DNA of 64,000 bases. It comes from Escherichia coli. Its GTDB lineage: Bacteria > Pseudomonadota > Gammaproteobacteria > Enterobacterales > Enterobacteriaceae. The notes beneath the pieces are model-generated. The model did no database searches, was not told the DNA's origin, and saw nothing but the letters and a program-made list of their open reading frames with translations. The stretch is from assembly GCF_001677475.2 (NCBI RefSeq), contig NZ_CP015229.1, one strand, 5' to 3'. Both the position numbers and the translations under genes were made by a program. This document shows, in pieces, positions 5,082-56,584 of this stretch; positions within the stretch are counted from its first letter, which is position 1, and each line of letters begins with the position of its first letter.

Positions 5082-6704
5082 ATGCGCGTTAACAATGGTT
5101 TGACCCCGCAAGAACTCGAGGCTTATGGTATCAGTGACGTACATGATATCGTTTACAACCCAAGCTACGGCCTGCTGTATCAGGAAGAGCTCGATCCGAG
5201 CCTGACAGGTTATGAGCGCGGGGTGTTAACTAATCTGGGTGCCGTTGCCGTCGATACCGGGATCTTCACTGGTCGTTCACCAAAAGATAAGTATATCGTC
5301 CGTGACGATACCACTCGCGATACTTTCTGGTGGGCAGACAAAGGCAAAGGTAAGAACGATAACAAACCTCTCTCTCCGGAAACCTGGCAGCATCTGAAAG
5401 GCCTGGTGACCAAGCAGCTTTCCGGCAAACGTCTGTTCGTTGTCGACGCCTTCTGTGGTGCGAACCCGGATACTCGTCTTTCCGTCCGTTTCATCACCGA
5501 AGTGGCCTGGCAGGCGCATTTTGTCAAAAACATGTTTATTCGCCCGAGCGATGAAGAGCTGGCAGGTTTCAAACCAGACTTTATCGTTATGAACGGCGCG
5601 AAGTGCACTAACCCGCAGTGGAAAGAACAGGGTCTGAACTCCGAAAACTTCGTGGCGTTTAACCTGACCGAGCGCATGCAGCTGATTGGCGGCACCTGGT
5701 ACGGCGGCGAAATGAAAAAAGGGATGTTCTCGATGATGAACTACCTGCTGCCGCTGAAAGGTATCGCTTCTATGCACTGCTCCGCCAACGTTGGTGAGAA
5801 AGGCGATGTTGCGGTATTCTTCGGCCTTTCCGGCACCGGTAAAACCACCCTTTCCACCGACCCGAAACGCCGCCTGATTGGCGATGACGAGCACGGCTGG
5901 GACGATGACGGCGTGTTTAACTTCGAAGGCGGCTGCTACGCAAAAACTATCAAGCTGTCGAAAGAAGCGGAACCTGAAATCTACAACGCTATCCGTCGTG
6001 ATGCGCTGCTGGAAAACGTCACCGTGCGTGAAGATGGTTCTATCGACTTTGATGATGGTTCAAAAACCGAGAACACCCGCGTTTCTTATCCGATCTATCA
6101 CATCGAAAACATCGTTAAGCCGGTGTCCAAAGCGGGCCACGCAACTAAAGTTATCTTCCTGACCGCAGACGCCTTTGGTGTGCTGCCGCCGGTTTCTCGT
6201 CTGACTGCCGATCAAACCCAGTACCACTTCCTCTCTGGCTTCACCGCCAAACTGGCTGGTACAGAGCGCGGCATCACCGAACCGACGCCAACTTTCTCCG
6301 CCTGCTTCGGCGCGGCATTCCTGTCGCTGCACCCGACTCAGTACGCAGAAGTGCTGGTGAAACGTATGCAGGCGGCGGGCGCGCAGGCTTATCTGGTTAA
6401 CACTGGCTGGAATGGCACTGGCAAACGTATCTCGATTAAAGATACCCGCGCTATTATCGACGCCATCCTCAACGGTTCACTGGATAATGCAGAAACCTTC
6501 ACTTTGCCGATGTTTAACCTGGCGATCCCAACAGAACTGCCGGGCGTAGACACTAAGATCCTTGATCCGCGTAACACCTACGCTTCTCCGGAACAGTGGC
6601 AGGAAAAAGCCGAAACCCTGGCGAAACTGTTTATCGACAACTTCGATAAATACACCGACACCCCAGCGGGTGCCGCGCTGGTAGCGGCTGGTCCGAAACT
6701 GTAA
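5082..6704 (+). CDS. pck: Phosphoenolpyruvate carboxykinase (ATP)
   Basis: Track ORF 5013..6704; start moved to ATG at 5082 ([10 protein letters not shown]) preceded by AGGAG at 5071-5075; kinase-1a motif GLSGTGKTT; 540 aa. Confidence 0.97.
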
Positions 6705-12654: not shown

Positions 12655-14976
12655 ATGAAAAAATTAACCATTGGCTTAATTGGTAATCCAAATTCTGGCA
12701 AGACAACCTTATTTAACCAGCTCACTGGTGCACGTCAGCGTGTAGGTAACTGGGCTGGTGTTACCGTCGAACGTAAAGAAGGGCAATTCTCCACCACCGA
12801 TCATCAGGTCACGCTGGTGGACCTGCCCGGCACCTATTCTCTGACCACCATCTCATCGCAGACCTCGCTCGATGAGCAAATCGCCTGTCACTATATTCTG
12901 AGTGGCGACGCCGACCTGCTGATTAACGTGGTGGATGCGTCTAACCTTGAGCGTAACCTGTACCTGACGCTGCAACTGCTGGAACTCGGCATTCCCTGCA
13001 TCGTGGCACTGAACATGCTCGACATTGCCGAGAAGCAAAATATTCGTATTGAAATTGATGCTCTGTCGGCGCGTCTTGGCTGCCCGGTGATCCCGCTGGT
13101 TTCAACCCGTGGTCGCGGTATTGAAGCGCTCAAGCTGGCGATTGATCGCTATAAAGCTAACGAGAATGTGGAACTGGTGCATTACGCACAGCCGCTACTC
13201 AACGAAGCAGATTCACTGGCAAAAGTGATGCCTTCCGACATCCCGCTGAAACAACGTCGCTGGCTGGGCCTGCAAATGCTGGAAGGCGATATCTACAGCC
13301 GCGCCTACGCCGGTGAAGCGTCGCAGCATCTGGATGCCGCCCTCGCCCGTCTGCGTAATGAGATGGACGATCCGGCGCTGCACATTGCCGATGCGCGTTA
13401 CCAGTGCATTGCTGCCATCTGTGATGTGGTAAGCAACACCCTGACGGCAGAACCCAGCCGTTTCACCACTGCGGTAGATAAAATCGTGCTCAACCGTTTC
13501 CTCGGTCTGCCGATTTTCCTCTTTGTGATGTACCTGATGTTCCTGCTGGCTATCAACATCGGCGGGGCGTTACAGCCGCTGTTTGATGTCGGTTCCGTGG
13601 CGCTGTTTGTGCATGGTATTCAGTGGATTGGCTACACGCTCCACTTCCCGGACTGGCTGACTATCTTCCTCGCCCAGGGCCTGGGCGGCGGTATTAACAC
13701 CGTGCTGCCACTGGTGCCGCAGATCGGCATGATGTACCTGTTCCTCTCCTTCCTTGAGGACTCCGGCTATATGGCGCGTGCGGCGTTTGTGATGGACCGT
13801 CTGATGCAGGCGCTGGGCTTGCCGGGGAAATCCTTTGTACCGCTGATCGTTGGTTTCGGTTGTAACGTACCGTCGGTAATGGGCGCACGTACGCTTGATG
13901 CACCGCGTGAACGTCTGATGACCATCATGATGGCACCGTTTATGTCCTGCGGCGCGCGTCTGGCTATCTTCGCAGTATTTGCGGCTGCCTTCTTCGGGCA
14001 GAACGGTGCGCTGGCGGTCTTCTCGCTGTATATGCTCGGTATTGTGATGGCGGTGCTGACTGGCCTGATGCTCAAGTACACCATCATGCGCGGTGAAGCG
14101 ACGCCGTTTGTCATGGAGCTGCCGGTCTACCATGTACCACACGTTAAAAGCCTGATTATCCAGACCTGGCAGCGTCTGAAAGGCTTCGTTCTGCGTGCTG
14201 GTAAAGTGATTATCATCGTCAGCATTTTCCTGAGTGCTTTCAACAGCTTCTCTCTGAGCGGGAAAATCGTCGATAACATCAACGACTCGGCGCTGGCTTC
14301 CGTCAGCCGGGTGATCACCCCAGTCTTCAAGCCGATTGGCGTGCATGAAGATAACTGGCAGGCAACGGTTGGCCTGTTTACAGGCGCAATGGCGAAAGAA
14401 GTGGTGGTGGGTACGCTCAACACCCTCTACACCGCAGAAAATATTCAGGACGAAGAGTTCAATCCGGCGGAATTTAACCTCGGTGAAGAGCTGTTCAGTG
14501 CGGTAGATGAAACCTGGCAGAGCCTGAAAGACACCTTCAGCCTTAGCGTACTGATGAACCCGATTGAAGCGAGCAAAGGCGACGGCGAAATGGGTACCGG
14601 GGCGATGGGCGTGATGGATCAGAAATTCGGTAGCGCAGCTGCCGCATACAGCTACCTGATTTTCGTCCTGCTGTATGTACCGTGCATCTCGGTGATGGGT
14701 GCTATCGCCCGTGAATCAAGCCGTGGCTGGATGGGCTTCTCCATCCTGTGGGGGCTGAATATCGCTTACTCGCTGGCAACATTGTTCTATCAGGTCGCCA
14801 GCTACAGCCAGCATCCAACTTACAGCCTGGTGTGCATTCTGGCGGTTATCCTGTTTAACATCGTGGTTATCGGTTTGCTGCGTCGCGCGCGTAGCCGGGT
14901 GGATATCGAACTGCTGGCAACGCGCAAATCGGTAAGCAGTTGCTGCGCAGCCAGCACCACCGGTGATTGCCATTAA
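12655..14976 (+). CDS. feoB: Ferrous iron transporter FeoB (N-terminal G-protein domain plus polytopic permease)
   Basis: Track ORF 12643..14976; start at [21 protein letters not shown] (P-loop), 773 aa. Confidence 0.96.
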
Positions 14977-25477: not shown

Positions 25478-28189
<2,712 letters not shown>

Positions 28190-28193
28190 GTTT

Positions 28194-28219
28194 AGCCGGA
28201 TGATGCGTCGGATCCGGCT
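28194..28219. terminator. Hairpin between convergent malT and rtcA
   Basis: AGCCGGAT gatgcgtcgg ATCCGGCT inverted repeat. Confidence 0.5.
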
Positions 28220-28231
28220 TACATCTTTACA

Positions 28232-29251
<1,020 letters not shown>

Positions 29252-30478
29252 TTATCCTTTTACGCACACCACCTGACGCAGGGTGTAGATAACTTCCACC
29301 AGATCGCTTTGTGCCGCCATCACCGCATCAATATCTTTATACGCCATCGGGATTTCGTCGATCACTTCGGCATCTTTACGGCATTCCACATGCGCGGTGG
29401 CACGAATTTGATCTTCCACGCTGAACAGTTTTTTCGCTTTAGTACGGCTCATAACCCGCCCGGCACCGTGGCTGCACGAACAGAACGACTCTTCATTTCC
29501 CAGCCCACGGACGATAAAGCTTTTCGCTCCCATCGACCCTGGAATAATTCCATATTGACCAGCACGCGCAGACACCGCGCCTTTACGCGTCACGTAGATC
29601 TCTTCACCAAAGTGCTGTTCTTTTTGCACATAGTTGTGGTGACAGCTGATCTCTTCCATCGCCAGCGTTTGTGGCTGTCTGACCGTTTTCTGCGTAATGC
29701 TCTGCAACGCCGTAACCACGTTTTCCATCATCGCATCACGGTTAAGGCTGGCAAAAAGCTGCGCCCAGGCCACAGCTTTCAGGTAATCATCAAAGTATTC
29801 CGTGCCTTCCATAAAGTACGCCAGATCACGCGACGGCAACGTCTCAAGCGTTTCCTGCATCTCTTTTTGCGCCAGATCGATAAAGTAAGTCCCGATGGCG
29901 TTACCAATTCCGCGTGAACCGGAGTGCAACATAATCCACACCTGGTCCGACTCATCAAGGCAGATTTCAATAAAGTGGTTACCCGTTCCCAGCGTTCCCA
30001 GGTGTTTATAGTTGTTAGTGTTAAGGAAACGCGGATATTTTTGCGTTAACCACTGATAACCGGCTTCAAGCTCAGCCCATTTCGCATCGACGTTAACAGG
30101 CGGGTTTTCCCATGCGCCTTTATCACGTTTACAACGCCCGGTAGTACGCCCGTGCGGCACGGCAGTTTCAATGGCCTGACGCAGTTCCGCCAGGTTTTCC
30201 GGCAGATCTGCCGCCGTTAACGCGGTACGCAGTGCGTTCATTCCACAACCGATATCCACGCCCACCGCTGCAGGAATAATCGCCCCTTTGGTCGGGATCA
30301 CGCTACCAATGGTGGAACCTTTACCCAGGTGCACGTCAGGCATTACCGCAATATGTTTGAAAATAAACGGCATCTTCGCCGTATTAATAAGTTGCTGACG
30401 CGCATCGGCTTCTACCGGCACGCCTTTGGTCCACATTTTTACCGGGGCATTTTCAGTGGTCAGTAATTCGTAATTCAT
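29252..30478 (-). CDS. rtcB: RNA-splicing ligase RtcB
   Basis: 408-aa ORF; RtcB motifs (GTGNHFIEI, HNYV); sigma54 promoter upstream. Confidence 0.95.
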   Translation of the reverse strand: MNYELLTTENAPVKMWTKGVPVEADARQQLINTAKMPFIFKHIAVMPDVHLGKGSTIGSVIPTKGAIIPAAVGVDIGCGMNALRTALTAADLPENLAELRQAIETAVPHGRTTGRCKRDKGAWENPPVNVDAKWAELEAGYQWLTQKYPRFLNTNNYKHLGTLGTGNHFIEICLDESDQVWIMLHSGSRGIGNAIGTYFIDLAQKEMQETLETLPSRDLAYFMEGTEYFDDYLKAVAWAQLFASLNRDAMMENVVTALQSITQKTVRQPQTLAMEEISCHHNYVQKEQHFGEEIYVTRKGAVSARAGQYGIIPGSMGAKSFIVRGLGNEESFCSCSHGAGRVMSRTKAKKLFSVEDQIRATAHVECRKDAEVIDEIPMAYKDIDAVMAAQSDLVEVIYTLRQVVCVKG

Positions 30479-30515
30479 TTTGTTTTTCTCTTTTCATTGT
30501 TTGCTGTCCTGATAA

Positions 30516-30533
30516 TTGCAACCGTCGTGCCAG
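30516..30533 (-). promoter_or_regulatory. Sigma54 (-24/-12) promoter of rtcBA
   Basis: Minus strand reads CTGGCACgacggTTGCA, matching TGGCAC-N5-TTGCA, about 38 bp upstream of rtcB ATG and divergent from rtcR. Confidence 0.85.
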
Positions 30534-30666
30534 AAAATTAAATAAGCAGATTAATTTTTTTATTCATTGTTTTAAAAAAGATTATATCTTTACGTCCGTA
30601 ACCGGAGATTTCCCGCAAAGCCGATTTACCGATAATGAAATATCGTCTTTTATAAGGATATCTAAG

Positions 30667-32265
30667 ATGCGTAAAACAGTGGCTTTTGGCTTTGTCGGTA
30701 CCGTACTGGATTATGCCGGACGCGGCAGTCAGCGCTGGTCAAAATGGCGTCCGACACTCTGTTTATGCCAGCAAGAATCGTTGGTCATCGATCGACTGGA
30801 ATTATTGCACGACGCCCGCTCGCGCTCGCTATTTGAAACGCTTAAACGCGATATCGCCAGCGTTTCGCCAGAAACAGAAGTGCTGAGCGTTGAGATTGAA
30901 CTGCATAACCCGTGGGATTTCGAAGAGGTTTACGCCTGCCTGCATGATTTCGCCCGTGGTTACGAGTTTCAGCCAGAAAAAGAAGACTATTTAATTCACA
31001 TCACCACCGGCACCCACGTCGCGCAGATTTGCTGGTTTCTGCTGGCGGAAGCGCGTTACCTGCCCGCCCGGTTGATACAATCTTCACCTCCGCGCAAAAA
31101 AGAACAGCCGCGCGGCGCAGGTGAAGTGACGATTATCGATCTCGATTTAAGCCGTTATAACGCCATCGCCAGCCGCTTTGCCGAGGAACGCCAGCAAACG
31201 CTTGATTTTCTTAAGTCCGGCATTGCCACGCGTAACCCCCTCTTCAACCGCATGATTGAGCAGATTGAAAAAGTGGCGATTAAATCCCGCGCACCGATCC
31301 TGCTTAACGGCCCGACCGGCGCGGGTAAGTCGTTTCTGGCACGACGAATTTTCGAATTAAAACAGGCGCGGCATCAGTTTAGCGGCGCGTTTGTGGAAGT
31401 GAACTGCGCCACCTTGCGTGGCGATACCGCCATGTCGACGCTGTTTGGTCATGTAAAAGGCGCGTTTACCGGGGCGCGGGAATCTCGTGAAGGTTTATTA
31501 CGTAGCGCCAACGGCGGAATGTTGTTTCTTGATGAGATTGGCGAACTGGGCGCAGACGAACAGGCAATGCTGCTAAAAGCCATTGAAGAGAAAACCTTTT
31601 ACCCATTTGGCAGCGATCGCCAGGTGAACAGTGATTTTCAGCTTATCGCCGGAACGGTGCGCGATTTGCGCCAGCTGGTTGCCGAAGGCAAATTTCGCGA
31701 AGATCTGTACGCGCGGATCAATCTCTGGACCTTCACCCTGCCGGGTCTACGCCAGCGCCAGGAAGATATTGAACCGAACCTGGATTATGAAGTGGAGCGC
31801 CACGCCACACTCACTGGTGACAGCGTGCGTTTTAACACCGAAGCGCGGCGTGCCTGGTTGGCTTTTGCGACCTCTCCCCAGGCGACATGGCGCGGTAACT
31901 TTCGCGAACTTTCCGCCAGCGTCACGCGGATGGCCACCTTTGCCACTAGCGGACGCATCACTCTGGCCGTGGTTGAAGATGAGATAAACCGTCTGCGCTA
32001 TAACTGGCAGGAGAGCCGCCCCTCCGCGCTTACGACTTTGCTGGGCGCAGAGGCAGAAAACATCGATCTCTTCGACCGTATGCAACTGGAATACGTTATC
32101 GCTATCTGCCGCCAGGCAAAGTCGCTTTCCGCAGCCGGACGCCAGCTTTTTGACGTTTCGCGCCAGGGCAAAGCCAGCGTCAATGACGCGGATCGGCTAC
32201 GCAAATACCTGGCGCGTTTTGGTCTGACGTGGGAAGCCGTGCAGGATCAGCACAGCTCCAGTTGA
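30667..32265 (+). CDS. rtcR: RtcR, sigma54-dependent activator of rtcBA
   Basis: 532-aa ORF; AAA+ sigma54-activator motifs GPTGAGKS and GAFTGA; divergent from rtcB. Confidence 0.95.
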
Positions 32266-35948: not shown

Positions 35949-35969
35949 TATTTGGATTCCTTAGACTAT

Positions 35970-36575
35970 TTATTGTAAATAATTGAATAACGGCCCCTGA
36001 GCTAAAATCGCCAAACTTAAGCACGTTACCCACTCACCCCATTTCTGCCTCTGGCTTCTATTTTTGCTACACCAATGGCAATAATATCCCAATGCAAAAC
36101 CAACCTGTGCACTAATCGGGCCGACAAAATCAGTCCACGACTGCGGCCAAAAAGGGGAAAAATTCAGGGGAAGCCAGACAAACGTCAGAAAGAAATTTCG
36201 GATATTTTCCAGCAACGCTGATTTCTCTGGAGAAATATAAAGAATGAAATTCGAGAGAATTAACCAGAAATAGACCGGAGAAAAGACCAGCCAGCAATGC
36301 AGTCTGTTTTTTAATTCAGGAGGCGTTCTGCGGGAGAATTGCCAACCGATGCCCCACATTACACTGAAAAAAAATGCATATTCAACCATTAACTCAAGTT
36401 GTAATTCCTGAAGAGAAATACGCACAACCAGGAGCGGAAAGGAGAATGTTATTTCTGCCAGAAAAGTTAACGTGAATATAAGTACGGCTAAGACAATAAC
36501 CGTCGGCCATACCAATACTGGCACGATAACAAAACCGAGAATTACAGGGGGAATATAAAGCCGGAATTTAATCAT
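35970..36575 (-). CDS. Hypothetical small polytopic membrane protein (last gene of uncharacterised four-gene operon)
   Basis: 201-aa ORF with several hydrophobic helices; AGGAAA 7 nt upstream of ATG; 2-nt gap from the upstream gene's stop. Confidence 0.6.
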   Translation of the reverse strand: MIKFRLYIPPVILGFVIVPVLVWPTVIVLAVLIFTLTFLAEITFSFPLLVVRISLQELQLELMVEYAFFFSVMWGIGWQFSRRTPPELKNRLHCWLVFSPVYFWLILSNFILYISPEKSALLENIRNFFLTFVWLPLNFSPFWPQSWTDFVGPISAQVGFALGYYCHWCSKNRSQRQKWGEWVTCLSLAILAQGPLFNYLQ

Positions 36576-36577
36576 TT

Positions 36578-37345
36578 TTATTTTCCTGGTGATTCGGATG
36601 ATGCGTCATACATCGCGCATAAACACTCATCAATCATCCAGTCGTCTACCCAGACCTGATGCTGTGTACCCTGTTCTGGCTGCTTTGGTGGGTTCTCAAT
36701 CGCCTGCCGCGCGCGTTCTTTCAGGATGGATTGATTGTTGAAGGCCCAGGCATTGATTTGGGCGGTAATGGCATTATCGATATCGTCATGGTTATCTCTG
36801 ATATAACCTTCACGATACTGGTTCAATAAACAGGCAAGTGAAGCTGCCGACCAAAAGCCGGGAATTGAATTAACGGCATCAAGCAACGGCGCAATGGCGA
36901 TATCGGCACGGAAAAACATTTCCAGCATATACTGTAATTCGACAGCTTCATCGCCGGATACCCAATCAGCCATATACTGGCAGGCAAATCGCTGCAATAT
37001 TGCCCGTTCATCCGCACGCCAGTTTTCTTTGTTGGCAAGGTTGATACGGCGCAGAGAAAAAACTTCGTGAATATTGTCAAAATACCCCTGTGCAACAAAT
37101 TCCAGTAAACGCGGAAGAAAATAGCGGACCTCATCGCTATTTTGCGGATCGGGTCCTGGGCTACTATTCCAGGCATTGATTAAGGAATACGAGATCGCTC
37201 GTAACGATGTACTCCGTAATACCTTTTGTTCCTGCTGACTCAGGCAATATTCACAACAAACCACAAATTTCTGCGGCACCGGATAGCGACGAAAAATATG
37301 ATAAATCTGCTCAATTAATGCCTGCATGGCGGGGCTGGGTTGCAT
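36578..37345 (-). CDS. Hypothetical soluble protein (third gene of uncharacterised operon); start ambiguous
   Basis: Track ORF 36578..37372 (264 aa); preferred start is the ATG at 37343-37345 (MQPSPAMQALIEQ, 255 aa) preceded by GAGGGGG and 2 nt after the upstream stop. Confidence 0.55.
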   Translation of the reverse strand: MQPSPAMQALIEQIYHIFRRYPVPQKFVVCCEYCLSQQEQKVLRSTSLRAISYSLINAWNSSPGPDPQNSDEVRYFLPRLLEFVAQGYFDNIHEVFSLRRINLANKENWRADERAILQRFACQYMADWVSGDEAVELQYMLEMFFRADIAIAPLLDAVNSIPGFWSAASLACLLNQYREGYIRDNHDDIDNAITAQINAWAFNNQSILKERARQAIENPPKQPEQGTQHQVWVDDWMIDECLCAMYDASSESPGK

Positions 37346-37347
37346 AA

Positions 37348-38055
37348 TTACCCCCTCGCCCGCTGGTCGCATGTAAATGGTTGATAAACCAAACGAGCAT
37401 TCGCCGCATTCAGGCGAATAATGGCACTACGAGAGAGGGAAAAGCTGGGGCGAATGCAATAATTACAGTCCCGACAGCTATCCTCTGTGCAATTTTCCAC
37501 TGAGTAATGACGCGCGTAGAGTTTCAGTTCAGCCTGCTTATCGCGAAATCCGCGTAAACTGTTATCGCTATGAAATTTCCAGGCTTCTTTAAACACCTGA
37601 AAGATATAGACATCCTCAATCCAGGAGTCACATTTTTTAAGCGGGCGCTTTGCTATGATCACCCGCTCCGGGTTTAGCATCGCCGTAAAATGAACGGTGA
37701 AGTCATTTGTCGTATTCAGGTCACATTGAACATCTGGTACATCACTGATATAGGGGTCAAATCCAAAATCAGCACCACAGGCACAAAGACGACCGATCGT
37801 GGTGGTATCGAGGGAAAATCCCGGCCATACATTGCTGGACGTTAAGCCAATATTTAATGTGACATTATATCGAAGCAATCCCTCAAGACCGTCAGCACCG
37901 ACGAACTTTTCCCCTTCATCCAGGACCTGATTAATGAGTTGTTGAACAATACCTTCATCCCAGTATGCCGATTTGCAGTTGGCAATCGTAATATCCACGC
38001 CTGTGAAAGGATCAGTACCAGCGAGGCTTGCAAATAATGTATTAACTAATTCCAT
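37348..38055 (-). CDS. Hypothetical Cys-rich protein (second gene of uncharacterised operon)
   Basis: 235-aa ORF with 10 Cys including cluster C-x4-C-x2-C-x2-C (CTEDSCRDCNYC); 14 nt downstream of the first gene. Confidence 0.6.
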   Translation of the reverse strand: MELVNTLFASLAGTDPFTGVDITIANCKSAYWDEGIVQQLINQVLDEGEKFVGADGLEGLLRYNVTLNIGLTSSNVWPGFSLDTTTIGRLCACGADFGFDPYISDVPDVQCDLNTTNDFTVHFTAMLNPERVIIAKRPLKKCDSWIEDVYIFQVFKEAWKFHSDNSLRGFRDKQAELKLYARHYSVENCTEDSCRDCNYCIRPSFSLSRSAIIRLNAANARLVYQPFTCDQRARG

Positions 38056-38069
38056 TTTTATTACCCGCC

Positions 38070-39587
38070 TTAATGCAACGTTTTATACATCGGCACATAA
38101 CCCACGTCTTCTACCAAACTCTGCCCCTGCGGCGTTAAAAACCATTCAACCAGTTTTTGTGTTTCTGACGTCATATTTTCCCGCGTTACCATAAAGGCAT
38201 CGACGATATAGGGATATTTGCCATTGCGAATGTTTTCCGCAGTCGGTGCAATACCGTTAATCGCTAACAATTTGATATTCTTATCGGCATTCATTTGTGT
38301 TGCGTAATAGCGGAAGGTATAACCTATTGCGTTGTTTGTATTACGGTATTCGGCAACGACTTTAATCATTCCCTCCATCACACTTGCCACTTCGGTTTCC
38401 TGCGGCGAGATCATACGGACATTTTTCATGACCTGTAATTGCATCACCGTCTGACTGCCAGAGTCTTCCGGGCGTTGCCAGGTCTGGATCTCCTGATCGT
38501 TACCGCCAACAGTACGCCAGTTGGTAATTGCGCCACTAAAAATGTCTCGCACTTGTTGTTCAGTCAGGGAATTGACTGGATTATCAGCATTGACGATAAA
38601 AACAAATGCTTCACGGGCAAAGGGGGTGTACAGCAAAGTGACACCAGATTCCTTTGCACGTTTTTTCTGCCCACCGGAAGGTTGCGCCACGAAAATAATA
38701 TCAGCATCACCCTTAACGATTTTGTTATATGCTTCTGGCGTACGAGAGTTATCCAGATAATCCCAAACGTGAAAATCCTCTGGTATTATGCTTAACGCAT
38801 AAAAGGCAGAAGCATAAATTGGGTACGCCGCCGTGGCACCATCGATTCGCGGCCAGTTTTGCGTAAACTGAATTTGCGGTTTGCCACGCAGCGGCGTCAG
38901 TCGATTATTGAGTTTATCGGGTCGCCAGGCCCAGATATCAATATTTTCGCGTACACCAACACCAGGGTTTTGCTGCTTATATAAATGGGCCTGATACCCA
39001 GCGACAATACCAAGTAAGAGAAGTAGAAACAGGAGTAAGTTACGGCAACGTAGCCCGGACGTGCCGGTTAAAGGATGCCTTGTCGGCCAGCCGTATCCCA
39101 GCGAAAAACTGATATGCGTTCCAACGGGAATAATGACTATCCACCAGTACTCACCACCGACTAATGAGACTAACAAAACACCCAGCCAGGGAAGCATAAG
39201 ATCTGCCAACCAACCTGAAACCATCTGGCGAAATTGATAATCTGCCAGATGTAGCGTGATTATCCAGCCAACCAGGATTAATAAAGCAGGAACTAAAAAA
39301 AGACATTGTCGCCAGGCGGCTATTTCTCTGTTTTCTGGTGCGCTATCGCCCGCCCACACTCGCCCAGAGAAAAATAGCAGTAATGCGCCCAGCGTCAGCA
39401 TAAAGACGTTAAGTAGAAGATAAATTGTTGGCGTAAAGAGTAAATTGCAAAACTCAAGAATAGCGGCAAGCCCGGCCCCCAGCATGGCAATAACCGCCGC
39501 CAAAAACTGCGCCAGAATGGGGATGCCGAAAAAAGTCATTACCAGCGAGGTCAAAATCCATTTTCTGTTTTGCATTATTCTTTCCAT
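38070..39587 (-). CDS. Membrane-anchored PstS-like (PBP-like) substrate-binding-domain protein (first gene of uncharacterised operon); probably the intact form of K-12 pseudogene yzgL
   Basis: 505-aa ORF; N-terminal ~190 aa with multiple hydrophobic helices; C-terminal part with phosphate-binding-protein-like motifs (LTEQQVRDIFSGAITNWRTVGG); alternative start at Met5 (39575). Confidence 0.7.
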   Translation of the reverse strand: MERIMQNRKWILTSLVMTFFGIPILAQFLAAVIAMLGAGLAAILEFCNLLFTPTIYLLLNVFMLTLGALLLFFSGRVWAGDSAPENREIAAWRQCLFLVPALLILVGWIITLHLADYQFRQMVSGWLADLMLPWLGVLLVSLVGGEYWWIVIIPVGTHISFSLGYGWPTRHPLTGTSGLRCRNLLLFLLLLLGIVAGYQAHLYKQQNPGVGVRENIDIWAWRPDKLNNRLTPLRGKPQIQFTQNWPRIDGATAAYPIYASAFYALSIIPEDFHVWDYLDNSRTPEAYNKIVKGDADIIFVAQPSGGQKKRAKESGVTLLYTPFAREAFVFIVNADNPVNSLTEQQVRDIFSGAITNWRTVGGNDQEIQTWQRPEDSGSQTVMQLQVMKNVRMISPQETEVASVMEGMIKVVAEYRNTNNAIGYTFRYYATQMNADKNIKLLAINGIAPTAENIRNGKYPYIVDAFMVTRENMTSETQKLVEWFLTPQGQSLVEDVGYVPMYKTLH

Positions 39588-39604
39588 TCTTTCTGAATGG
39601 CGAA

Positions 39605-39610
39605 ATTATA
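39605..39610 (-). promoter_or_regulatory. Candidate -10 hexamer for the uncharacterised four-gene operon
   Basis: Minus strand TATAAT about 18-23 nt upstream of the first ATG and downstream of the glgP terminator; no good -35. Confidence 0.35.
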
Positions 39611-39659
39611 CTCCCCGAGTCCCCTTGCCCCTTCTGGACACTTTTCCGAAATGATGGCG

Positions 39660-42168: not shown

Positions 42169-43602
42169 CTATTTCAAGCGATAGTAAAGCTCACGGTACG
42201 ACTTCGCCGCGACCTGCCAGCTAAAATCCATTGCCATAGCCTGACGTTGCACAAACCGCCACAGTGAAGGACGGGACCACAGTACAAAAGCACGTCGAAT
42301 AGCCCGTAACAGCGACCAGGCATTACTATCTTCAAAGACAAACCCACTGGCGACGCCATCTGCAAGGTTCTCAAGAGAACAGTCAGAAACCGTATCAGCA
42401 AGCCCACCGGTGCGCCGCACTAACGGCAGCGTACCGTACTTCAATCCATAAAGTTGCGTTAAGCCGCACGGTTCAAAACGGCTGGGCACCAGAATGACGT
42501 CCGCGCCGCCCATAATGCGATGCGAAAATGCTTCGTGATAGCCAATCTGAACGCCCACCTGGCCGGGGTATTCCGCTGCCGCCGCAAGGAAACCTTCCTG
42601 CAGCACCGGATCGCCCGCGCCGAGTAGCGCCAACTGCCCGCCCTGCTCCAGAAGACCCGGTAAGGCTTCCAGCACCAGGTCGAGACCTTTCTGGCTGGTC
42701 AGACGGCTCACCACTGCAAAAAGCGGCACTTTATCGTCAACCTTAAGCCCCATTGCGATTTGTAACTGGCGCTTATTTTCCGCTTTATCTTCCAACGTAT
42801 CGCGGGTGTAGCGCGAGGCCAACAGTAAGTCCGTCTCTGGACTCCAGATTTTCTCGTCCACGCCGTTCAGTACGCCTGAAAGACGCCCTTCACGGTGACG
42901 CTGTTGCAACAGACCTTCCATACCGTAGGCAAACTGCGGTTCGGTGATCTCGCGAGCGTAGGTTGGACTGACCGCCGTAATGTGATCGGCATAGTACAGA
43001 CCGGCCTTCAGGAAAGAGATTTGTCCGTTGAATTCCAGCCCATGAATATTAAAGAATGACCATGGCAATTGGATGTCATTCATATGATGTGCATAAAACA
43101 TGCCTTGATAGGCCAGGTTGTGCACAGTAAACACCGACTTCGCCGGACGCCCGCGCGCCGCCAGATACGCAGGCGCAAGGCCTGCATGCCAGTCGTGCGC
43201 ATGCACCACATCAGGACGCCAGAATGGGTCAAGACCGCTGGCCATTTCTGCCCCAACCCACCCCAGCAGCGCAAAACGCAATACGTTGTCGGTATAGGCA
43301 AATAAGTTGGTATCGTGATACGGGCTTCCCGGACGATCATAGAGATGCGGCGCGTCAATCAGGTAAATGCCAACCCCGTTGTAATGACCGAACAACAGCG
43401 TGATATGTCCGGCGAAGGTATCACGACGGGATACTACCTGCGCATCGGTCACGCCACGGCGAATATCGGGAAATGCAGGCAACAGTACGCGAGCGTCAAC
43501 GCCGTCTGCGATTTGTGCTGCGGGTAATGCCCCAATAACATCAGCCAGACCGCCGGTTTTAAGCAGCGGGAACATCTCTGAACATACATGTAAAACCTGC
43601 AT
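42169..43602 (-). CDS. glgA: Glycogen synthase
   Basis: 477-aa ORF; N-terminal KTGGLADV motif. Confidence 0.97.
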
Positions 43603-56373: not shown

Positions 56374-56494
56374 GATTTCGTCCTTTTTAAGGTGATTATT
56401 TACACCTTAGCGCAAAGCGGACGTGGTTCCTACTGGAGTGCGCATAACGAACACAAGCACTTCCCGTGGATAAATTGAAAACGAAAGATCAAAA

Positions 56495-56584
56495 AAAAGC
56501 CAGCACCCGGCTGGCTAAGTAATACTGGAAGCAATGTGAGCAATGTCGTGCTTTCAGGTTCTCCGCGAGGGTCTTCCTGATCGC
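56495..56584 (-). ncRNA. ryhB: RyhB small RNA (Fur-repressed iron-sparing sRNA)
   Basis: Minus-strand sequence reads GCGATCAGGAAGACCCTCGCGGAGAACCTGAAAGCACGACATTGCTCACATTGCTTCCAGTATTACTTAGCCAGCCGGGTGCTGGCTTTT, matching RyhB as I recall it, ending in a GC-rich hairpin plus U-tract. Confidence 0.9.

Follow-up and report, generated by a model that had tools for sequence, protein, structure and literature searches.

The window analysed here, a single stretch of 64,000 nucleotides of Escherichia coli DNA, contains the RNA-repair genes rtcB and rtcA and, divergent from them, the sigma-54 activator gene rtcR. rtcB codes for an RNA ligase of 408 aa (Pfam RtcB, 5e-133) and is located at 29252-30478 on the minus strand. 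It is followed on the same strand by rtcA (28232-29248), coding for a 338-aa RNA 3'-terminal phosphate cyclase with the Pfam domains RTC and RTC_insert and a score of 771 bits against the NCBIfam cyclase equivalog (cutoff 333). The open frame of rtcA reaches an extra Met codon at 29251 (ORF 28232-29251, 339 aa). rtcR (30667-32265, plus strand) codes for a protein of 532 aa scoring 849 bits against the NCBIfam RtcR equivalog (cutoff 650). Further ORFs are present at 25484-28189 (plus strand, 901 aa) and, beyond rtcR, on the minus strand with lengths of 252 and 276 aa. The gene order malT / rtcA-rtcB / rtcR / glpR-glpG-glpE / glpD is shared with annotated E. coli genomes, K-12 MG1655 among them.

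All three rtc genes are full length with zero internal stops, and their products are nearly identical to the K-12 proteins (RtcB 406/408 residues, 99.5%; RtcA 327/338, 96.7%; RtcR 523/532, 98.3%). RtcB retains the guanylylated His H337 and the metal ligands (C78, D75, H168, H185 and H281 are present), and RtcA its adenylylated His, H308. RtcR retains the Walker A motif (GPTGAGKS at 215) and the sigma-54 contact loop GAFTGA (at 265). Its Pfam RtcR N-terminal domain covers residues 2-185 (9e-86) and the Sigma54_activat/AAA+ domain residues 188-354 (9e-51); the equivalog model spans residues 1-527. The AAA+ core aligns by sequence to the solved domains of NtrC1, FleQ, ZraR and PspF, and a sequence search of solved structures found relatives for this core only and none for the N-terminal domain, which is described as CARF-like (PMC9650030; PMC4987338). 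With E values of up to 1 allowed, no Pfam HTH family matched the C-terminal 93 residues (440-532). The initial annotation had taken the promoter as confirmation of an intact RNA-repair module; the module is intact by ORF analysis, but a promoter motif alone cannot confirm this. The locus had also been called already described, correctly so. The present sequence shows the module to be intact in one more Escherichia lineage.

Among 5,426 complete E. coli genomes, none exceeds 96.8% identity to the segment 28000-36000, and the maximum for the 381 bp around the promoter is 98.7%. Compared to K-12, the coding DNA is just 95-97.6% identical, and RtcR is 95-96% identical to its homologues in E. albertii, E. 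whittamii and two other Escherichia species. Judged from these identities, the window seems to derive from an Escherichia lineage just outside sampled E. coli diversity.

The sigma-54 promoter element

The intergenic gap between rtcB and rtcR comprises 188 bp (30479-30666), with rtcB and rtcA on the minus and rtcR on the plus strand. It contains a sigma-54 -24/-12 promoter element, CTGGCACGACGGTTGCA, at 30517-30533 on the minus strand, identified by consensus search, weight matrix, identity to a K-12 ChIP-seq motif and conservation. The GG doublet is located at 30531/30530 and the GC doublet at 30519/30518, 10 bp apart. From the last A of the element (30517) to the rtcB ATG (30478) the spacing is 38 nt. 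Compared with YTGGCACGRNNNTTGCW, the element has 0 mismatches at the 14 specified positions, while every other site in the window has at least 3. TGGCAC-N5-TTGCA has 1 exact match in the 64-kb window (0.09 expected), and at least one match appeared in 8 of 100 shuffled sequences.

A sigma-54 weight matrix was built from the intergenic sense ChIP-seq motifs that Bonocora et al. 2015 (PMC4591121) list in Table 1, 41 in number once rtcB had been omitted. The scan with such a matrix, proposed as a check in the initial annotation, placed the rtcB site first in the window with 17.5 bits (runner-up 13.9), a score above that of 71% of the training sites. The annotation was likewise right about the exact -24/-12 consensus on the minus strand, about its distance of some 38 bp to the rtcB start and, by ORFs and Pfam/NCBIfam matches, about the divergent orientation to the activator gene. 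The coordinates that it had given, 30479-30666, do contain the motif but span the whole rtcB-rtcR gap, the motif itself occupying 30517-30533.

The motif by itself does not settle the matter: the same score is attained somewhere in 16 of 100 random 64-kb sequences (Markov-1), with counts of 16-32 per 100 overall. The score of the rtcB site, taken without position and conservation, is thus only suggestive. The random-sequence rate translates to about 2e-4 chance matches expected in the 188-bp gap on the strand sense to rtcB. Position and conservation of the site jointly are far beyond chance.

Other matrix matches were recorded in the window. A plus-strand match of 13.2 bits at 30504-30520 reuses the palindromic TTGCAA without a GG and was dismissed. 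The second-best match of the window, CTGGCGCAGTTGTTGCG (27807-27823, minus strand, 13.9-14.2 bits), is antisense within malT and is absent from the high-stringency K-12 sigma-54 ChIP-seq list. Two K-12 sigma-54 ChIP-seq motifs are unchanged in the window, namely GTGGCACTGAACATGCT (IS42) within feoB at 13003-13019 (plus strand) and AAGGCATGTTTTATGCA (IS43) within glgA at 43090-43106 (minus strand). The glgA peak in K-12 is 49-fold above threshold and exceeds the rtcB peak. The spacing between the rtcB and glgA sigma-54 sites is about 3.1 kb longer than in K-12, with the additional DNA at 35950-39650. Between glpD and glgP this segment has four ORFs on the minus strand, one coding for a PstS/PBP_like_2 protein of 505 aa and the others for proteins of 201, 264 and 235 aa without a Pfam match. 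It is complete in 2,430 of the 5,426 E. coli genomes, the best full-length matches being 93-94% identical.

Conservation across rtcR loci

A scan of a species-representative genome collection for RtcR yielded 32 loci, 28 of which had a full-length homologue together with upstream DNA. The taxa covered are other Escherichia species, Klebsiella oxytoca, Intestinirhabdus, Rhodocyclaceae, Pseudomonas, Stenotrophomonas and Mesorhizobium, and further Calditrichia, Desulfobulbus and Desulfovibrio. When the 700 nt upstream of rtcR were scanned with the matrix, the top match fell on the divergent strand in 27 of the 28 loci, at 90-197 nt (mostly 127-160 nt) from the rtcR start. These divergent sites score 12.7-18.3 bits, while the second-best match of a locus usually scores 3-10 bits. 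Elsewhere in the same loci matches of at least 12.7 bits were found 7 times in 352,296 positions, corresponding to about 0.002 expected per locus in the zone. The sigma-54 promoter is retained irrespective of whether the operon's first gene is rtcB, rtcA or a Ro60-like rsr (vWA_Ro60 and TROVE domains), the last arrangement being found in Intestinirhabdus, Stenotrophomonas and Uliginosibacterium.

The lone exception, locus L028, belongs to an uncultured Desulfovibrio whose RtcR is 43% identical and which has neither rtcB nor rtcA within 3 kb; a sigma-54 site of 17.3 bits is located downstream of its rtcR homologue (5502-5518, minus strand). On the contig of the E. albertii type strain (L026:1591-2814, minus strand) the rtcB frame is open for just 262 codons from the start; tblastn aligns all 408 residues with 97% identity, and the gene is possibly a pseudogene or affected by a sequencing error. 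The promoter region between rtcB and rtcR has no match in 570 of the 5,426 complete E. coli genomes. In E. coli SCPM-O-B-8794 (L034:2889-3099) the last ~33 codons of rtcR abut the last ~47 codons of rtcA, the result of a deletion in which rtcB and the promoter were lost along with most of both rtcA and rtcR.

Transcription start, leader and upstream region

The start of the rtcBA transcript is predicted at the C at 30506 (minus strand), which is preceded by an A at 30507. This position was derived with the rule of PMC4591121, by which transcription begins 19 nt downstream of the sigma-54 motif centre (here 30525), and it would put the start of rtcBA in this strain 28 nt ahead of the rtcB start. 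The predicted C and the preceding A fit the ApC primer (-1/+1) with which native PrtcBA was assayed in vitro (PMC9650030). The rtcB 5' leader (30479-30505, minus strand) is A-rich. It carries a T at 30496 in place of the C of K-12, E. albertii and E. whittamii; this substitution creates a new ATG (30497-30495), and this ATG starts an out-of-frame ORF of 14 codons (30453-30497, minus strand) overlapping the rtcB start. A consensus scan for sigma-70 promoters over 28100-30800 gave no site on either strand of the gap, the sole site being inside rtcB, and did not locate a promoter of rtcR itself. The gap and its surroundings had no match to Rfam, which at the gathering threshold matched the window just once, with the small RNA RyhB (RF00057, 83 bits) at 56491-56555 on the minus strand.

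Upstream of the -24/-12 element the gap is AT-rich, with 7 G/C in the 57 nt of 30534-30590. Within this stretch an IHF-like site, AAACAATGAATAA, is found at 30560-30572 on the minus strand (-54 to -66), with two mismatches to WATCAANNNNTTR. K-12 has AAACAATGAATTA at the same place, with one mismatch to WATCAANNNNTTR; the second mismatch of the window is added by the SNP at 30561, a T-to-A change private to the window that alters the TTR part of the site. Many loci, among them those of Escherichia, Pseudomonas, Stenotrophomonas, Mesorhizobium and Uliginosibacterium, have an IHF-like site in the same orientation 25-48 nt upstream of the -24 GG, and several of these sites match perfectly. PMC9650030 names an 'rtc IHF binding site', although its sequence is not given, and the supplements of that paper give the 'UAS' and 'IHF site' of a hybrid promoter as a plasmid description only. 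On the sequence, an IHF site near -60 is predicted in this strain.

The rtcR-proximal end of the gap contains a conserved block of GATA/TATC half-sites (GATATC ... TTATAA ... CGATA-N6-TATCG) at 30630-30662, corresponding to -124 to -156 and located 5-37 nt before the rtcR ATG. An alignment of the gaps of Escherichia, K. oxytoca and Intestinirhabdus revealed two near-invariant blocks only, the -24/-12 element and the rtcR-adjacent block including CGATA-N6-TATCG (30630-30645); elsewhere the spacer is divergent. From 20 non-redundant loci a Gibbs sampler recovered TTATC-N6/7-GATA/TATA with an information content of 10.7 bits, compared with 8.7-9.4 bits in 8 shuffled controls. In 15 of the 20 loci the motif site is no more than 35 nt from the rtcR start, against 2-8 in the controls. 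The block overlaps the ribosome-binding region of rtcR and possibly the rtcR promoter too. It may represent the RtcR enhancer, a promoter or 5'UTR element of rtcR, or both. A 2016 review (PMC4987338) gives the enhancer of RtcR as not known, and a literature search for an RtcR UAS found no later definition of the site. A repeat search of the gap returned weak AT-rich repeats only; an inverted pair of 16 nt with 52 nt between the arms was discarded, being unsupported by the conservation alignment.

Function of the promoter and alternative readings

The K-12 counterpart of the feature is PrtcBA (Genschik et al. 1998; OS35 in PMC4591121). The two share the same 17-mer with its flanks, the 38-nt spacing, the length of the gap and the gene order, and 184 of the 188 intergenic bases are identical. 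They differ by four intergenic SNPs in the window, at 30623, 30561, 30550 and 30496. In K-12 the identical 17-mer underlies OS35, a minus-strand sigma-54 ChIP-seq peak that exceeds the threshold 17-fold; its predicted start lies 28 nt ahead of rtcB, and it bears the flag 'C', meaning experimental confirmation in EcoCyc (PMC4591121). Several papers citing Genschik et al. 1998, including PMC9650030 and PMC4987338, report that rtcBA needs sigma-54 and RtcR, and papers citing the same work report that RtcR without its N-terminal domain renders rtcBA constitutive. The rsrp promoter of Salmonella Typhimurium (rsr-yrlBA-rtcBA; PMC3844500, PMC9879122) is similar in being divergent from rtcR and activated by RtcR, with the near-identical core TGGCACGCTGGTTGCAAT. 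It differs in that the operon opens with the Ro60 homologue rsr and Y-RNA genes, whereas the window, like E. coli, has rtcB first. The Salmonella site TGGCACGCTGGTTGCAAT binds sigma-54, and a promoter fragment, picked for the absence of a predicted sigma-70 promoter, gave sigma-54-dependent reporter activity (PMC3844500).

Against this background, the idea that the motif is a functionless chance match is negligible. It could appeal to the 16-32% of random 64-kb sequences that equal the matrix score, but few such matches would be expected in the right strand of the gap (about 2e-4), the same relative position is kept across proteobacterial classes, and the identical K-12 sequence is occupied by sigma-54 (PMC4591121); the conservation, together with the published ChIP-seq data, excludes it. 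Transcription of rtcBA from a sigma-70 promoter is also most improbable. The gap is very AT-rich and weak -10-like hexamers are plentiful in it, but the consensus scan placed no sigma-70 site on either of its strands, and the Salmonella fragment was active in a sigma-54-dependent manner without a predicted sigma-70 promoter. RtcR-independent expression of rtcBA, possibly via alternative promoters, is discussed in PMC9650030.

The site might instead be bound by sigma-54 and yet be inert or merely occlusive, in the manner of many intragenic sigma-54 sites mapped in E. coli, rtcBA in this strain being silent or expressed by other means. Most of the 135 K-12 sigma-54 ChIP-seq sites are without shown promoter function (PMC4591121), native E. 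coli PrtcBA is very weak in vitro (PMC9650030), and the IHF-like site of this strain has an extra mismatch. The weakness in vitro also means that a consensus-perfect core need not make a strong promoter. On the other hand, the site is intergenic and in sense orientation, with its start 28 nt from rtcB and a dedicated activator gene, rtcR, beside it; its position is kept in 27 of 28 loci, and reporter and deletion data from E. coli and Salmonella demonstrate RtcR- and sigma-54-dependent activity. The chance that the bound site is without function is accordingly slim.

The feature is therefore almost certainly PrtcBA, which drives the RNA-repair operon rtcB-rtcA in dependence on RtcR and sigma-54, here in an Escherichia strain that is a close relative of E. 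coli. The motif, its rank and placement, the conservation and the intactness of the genes were observed directly, while occupancy, RtcR dependence and the activating signal are taken from the literature, and the exact start in this strain, the IHF site and the position of the enhancer are predictions. In such a promoter, sigma-54 RNA polymerase would sit on the -24 GG and -12 GC (30517-30533, minus strand) as a closed complex unable to start by itself. RtcR, produced from the divergent gene, would be held off by its CARF-like N-terminal domain until RNA-damage signals appear, namely tRNA fragments with 2',3'-cyclic phosphate ends together with input from RtcA and RtcB. Active RtcR would then oligomerise at the upstream enhancer, probably the conserved block at -124 to -156, and a DNA bend at the AT-rich IHF-like site near -60 would allow the enhancer-bound RtcR to meet the polymerase. 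The complex would be opened by RtcR through ATP hydrolysis and the GAFTGA loop, and transcription would start near 30506, yielding a 28-nt leader followed by rtcB and rtcA. The extra mismatch in the IHF-like site or the upstream ATG in the leader could lower the output of PrtcBA in this strain.

The arrangement resembles that of other IHF-assisted sigma-54 promoters, with an enhancer (about -125 to -155, a candidate here), an IHF-like bend (about -60), the -24/-12 element and an AAA+ activator carrying GAFTGA. It differs in the sensor, which in RtcR is CARF-like and reads RNA damage (PMC9650030) rather than being a receiver, GAF or PAS domain. PrtcBA is an ordinary, already described promoter; it is genuine and intact, and many bacteria conserve it. 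The locus represents a textbook enhancer-dependent promoter coupled to a CARF-type sensor and adds little new; the sole mildly new items are the figures for conservation across phyla and the positions proposed for the enhancer and the IHF site. A tentative and rather doubtful suggestion is that the GATA/TATC block is the RtcR enhancer and serves rtcR autoregulation, and that, separately, the lineage's private SNPs at 30561 and 30496 might damp induction of the operon. If true, RtcR would occupy its own promoter or leader, regulating its own synthesis while activating rtcBA.
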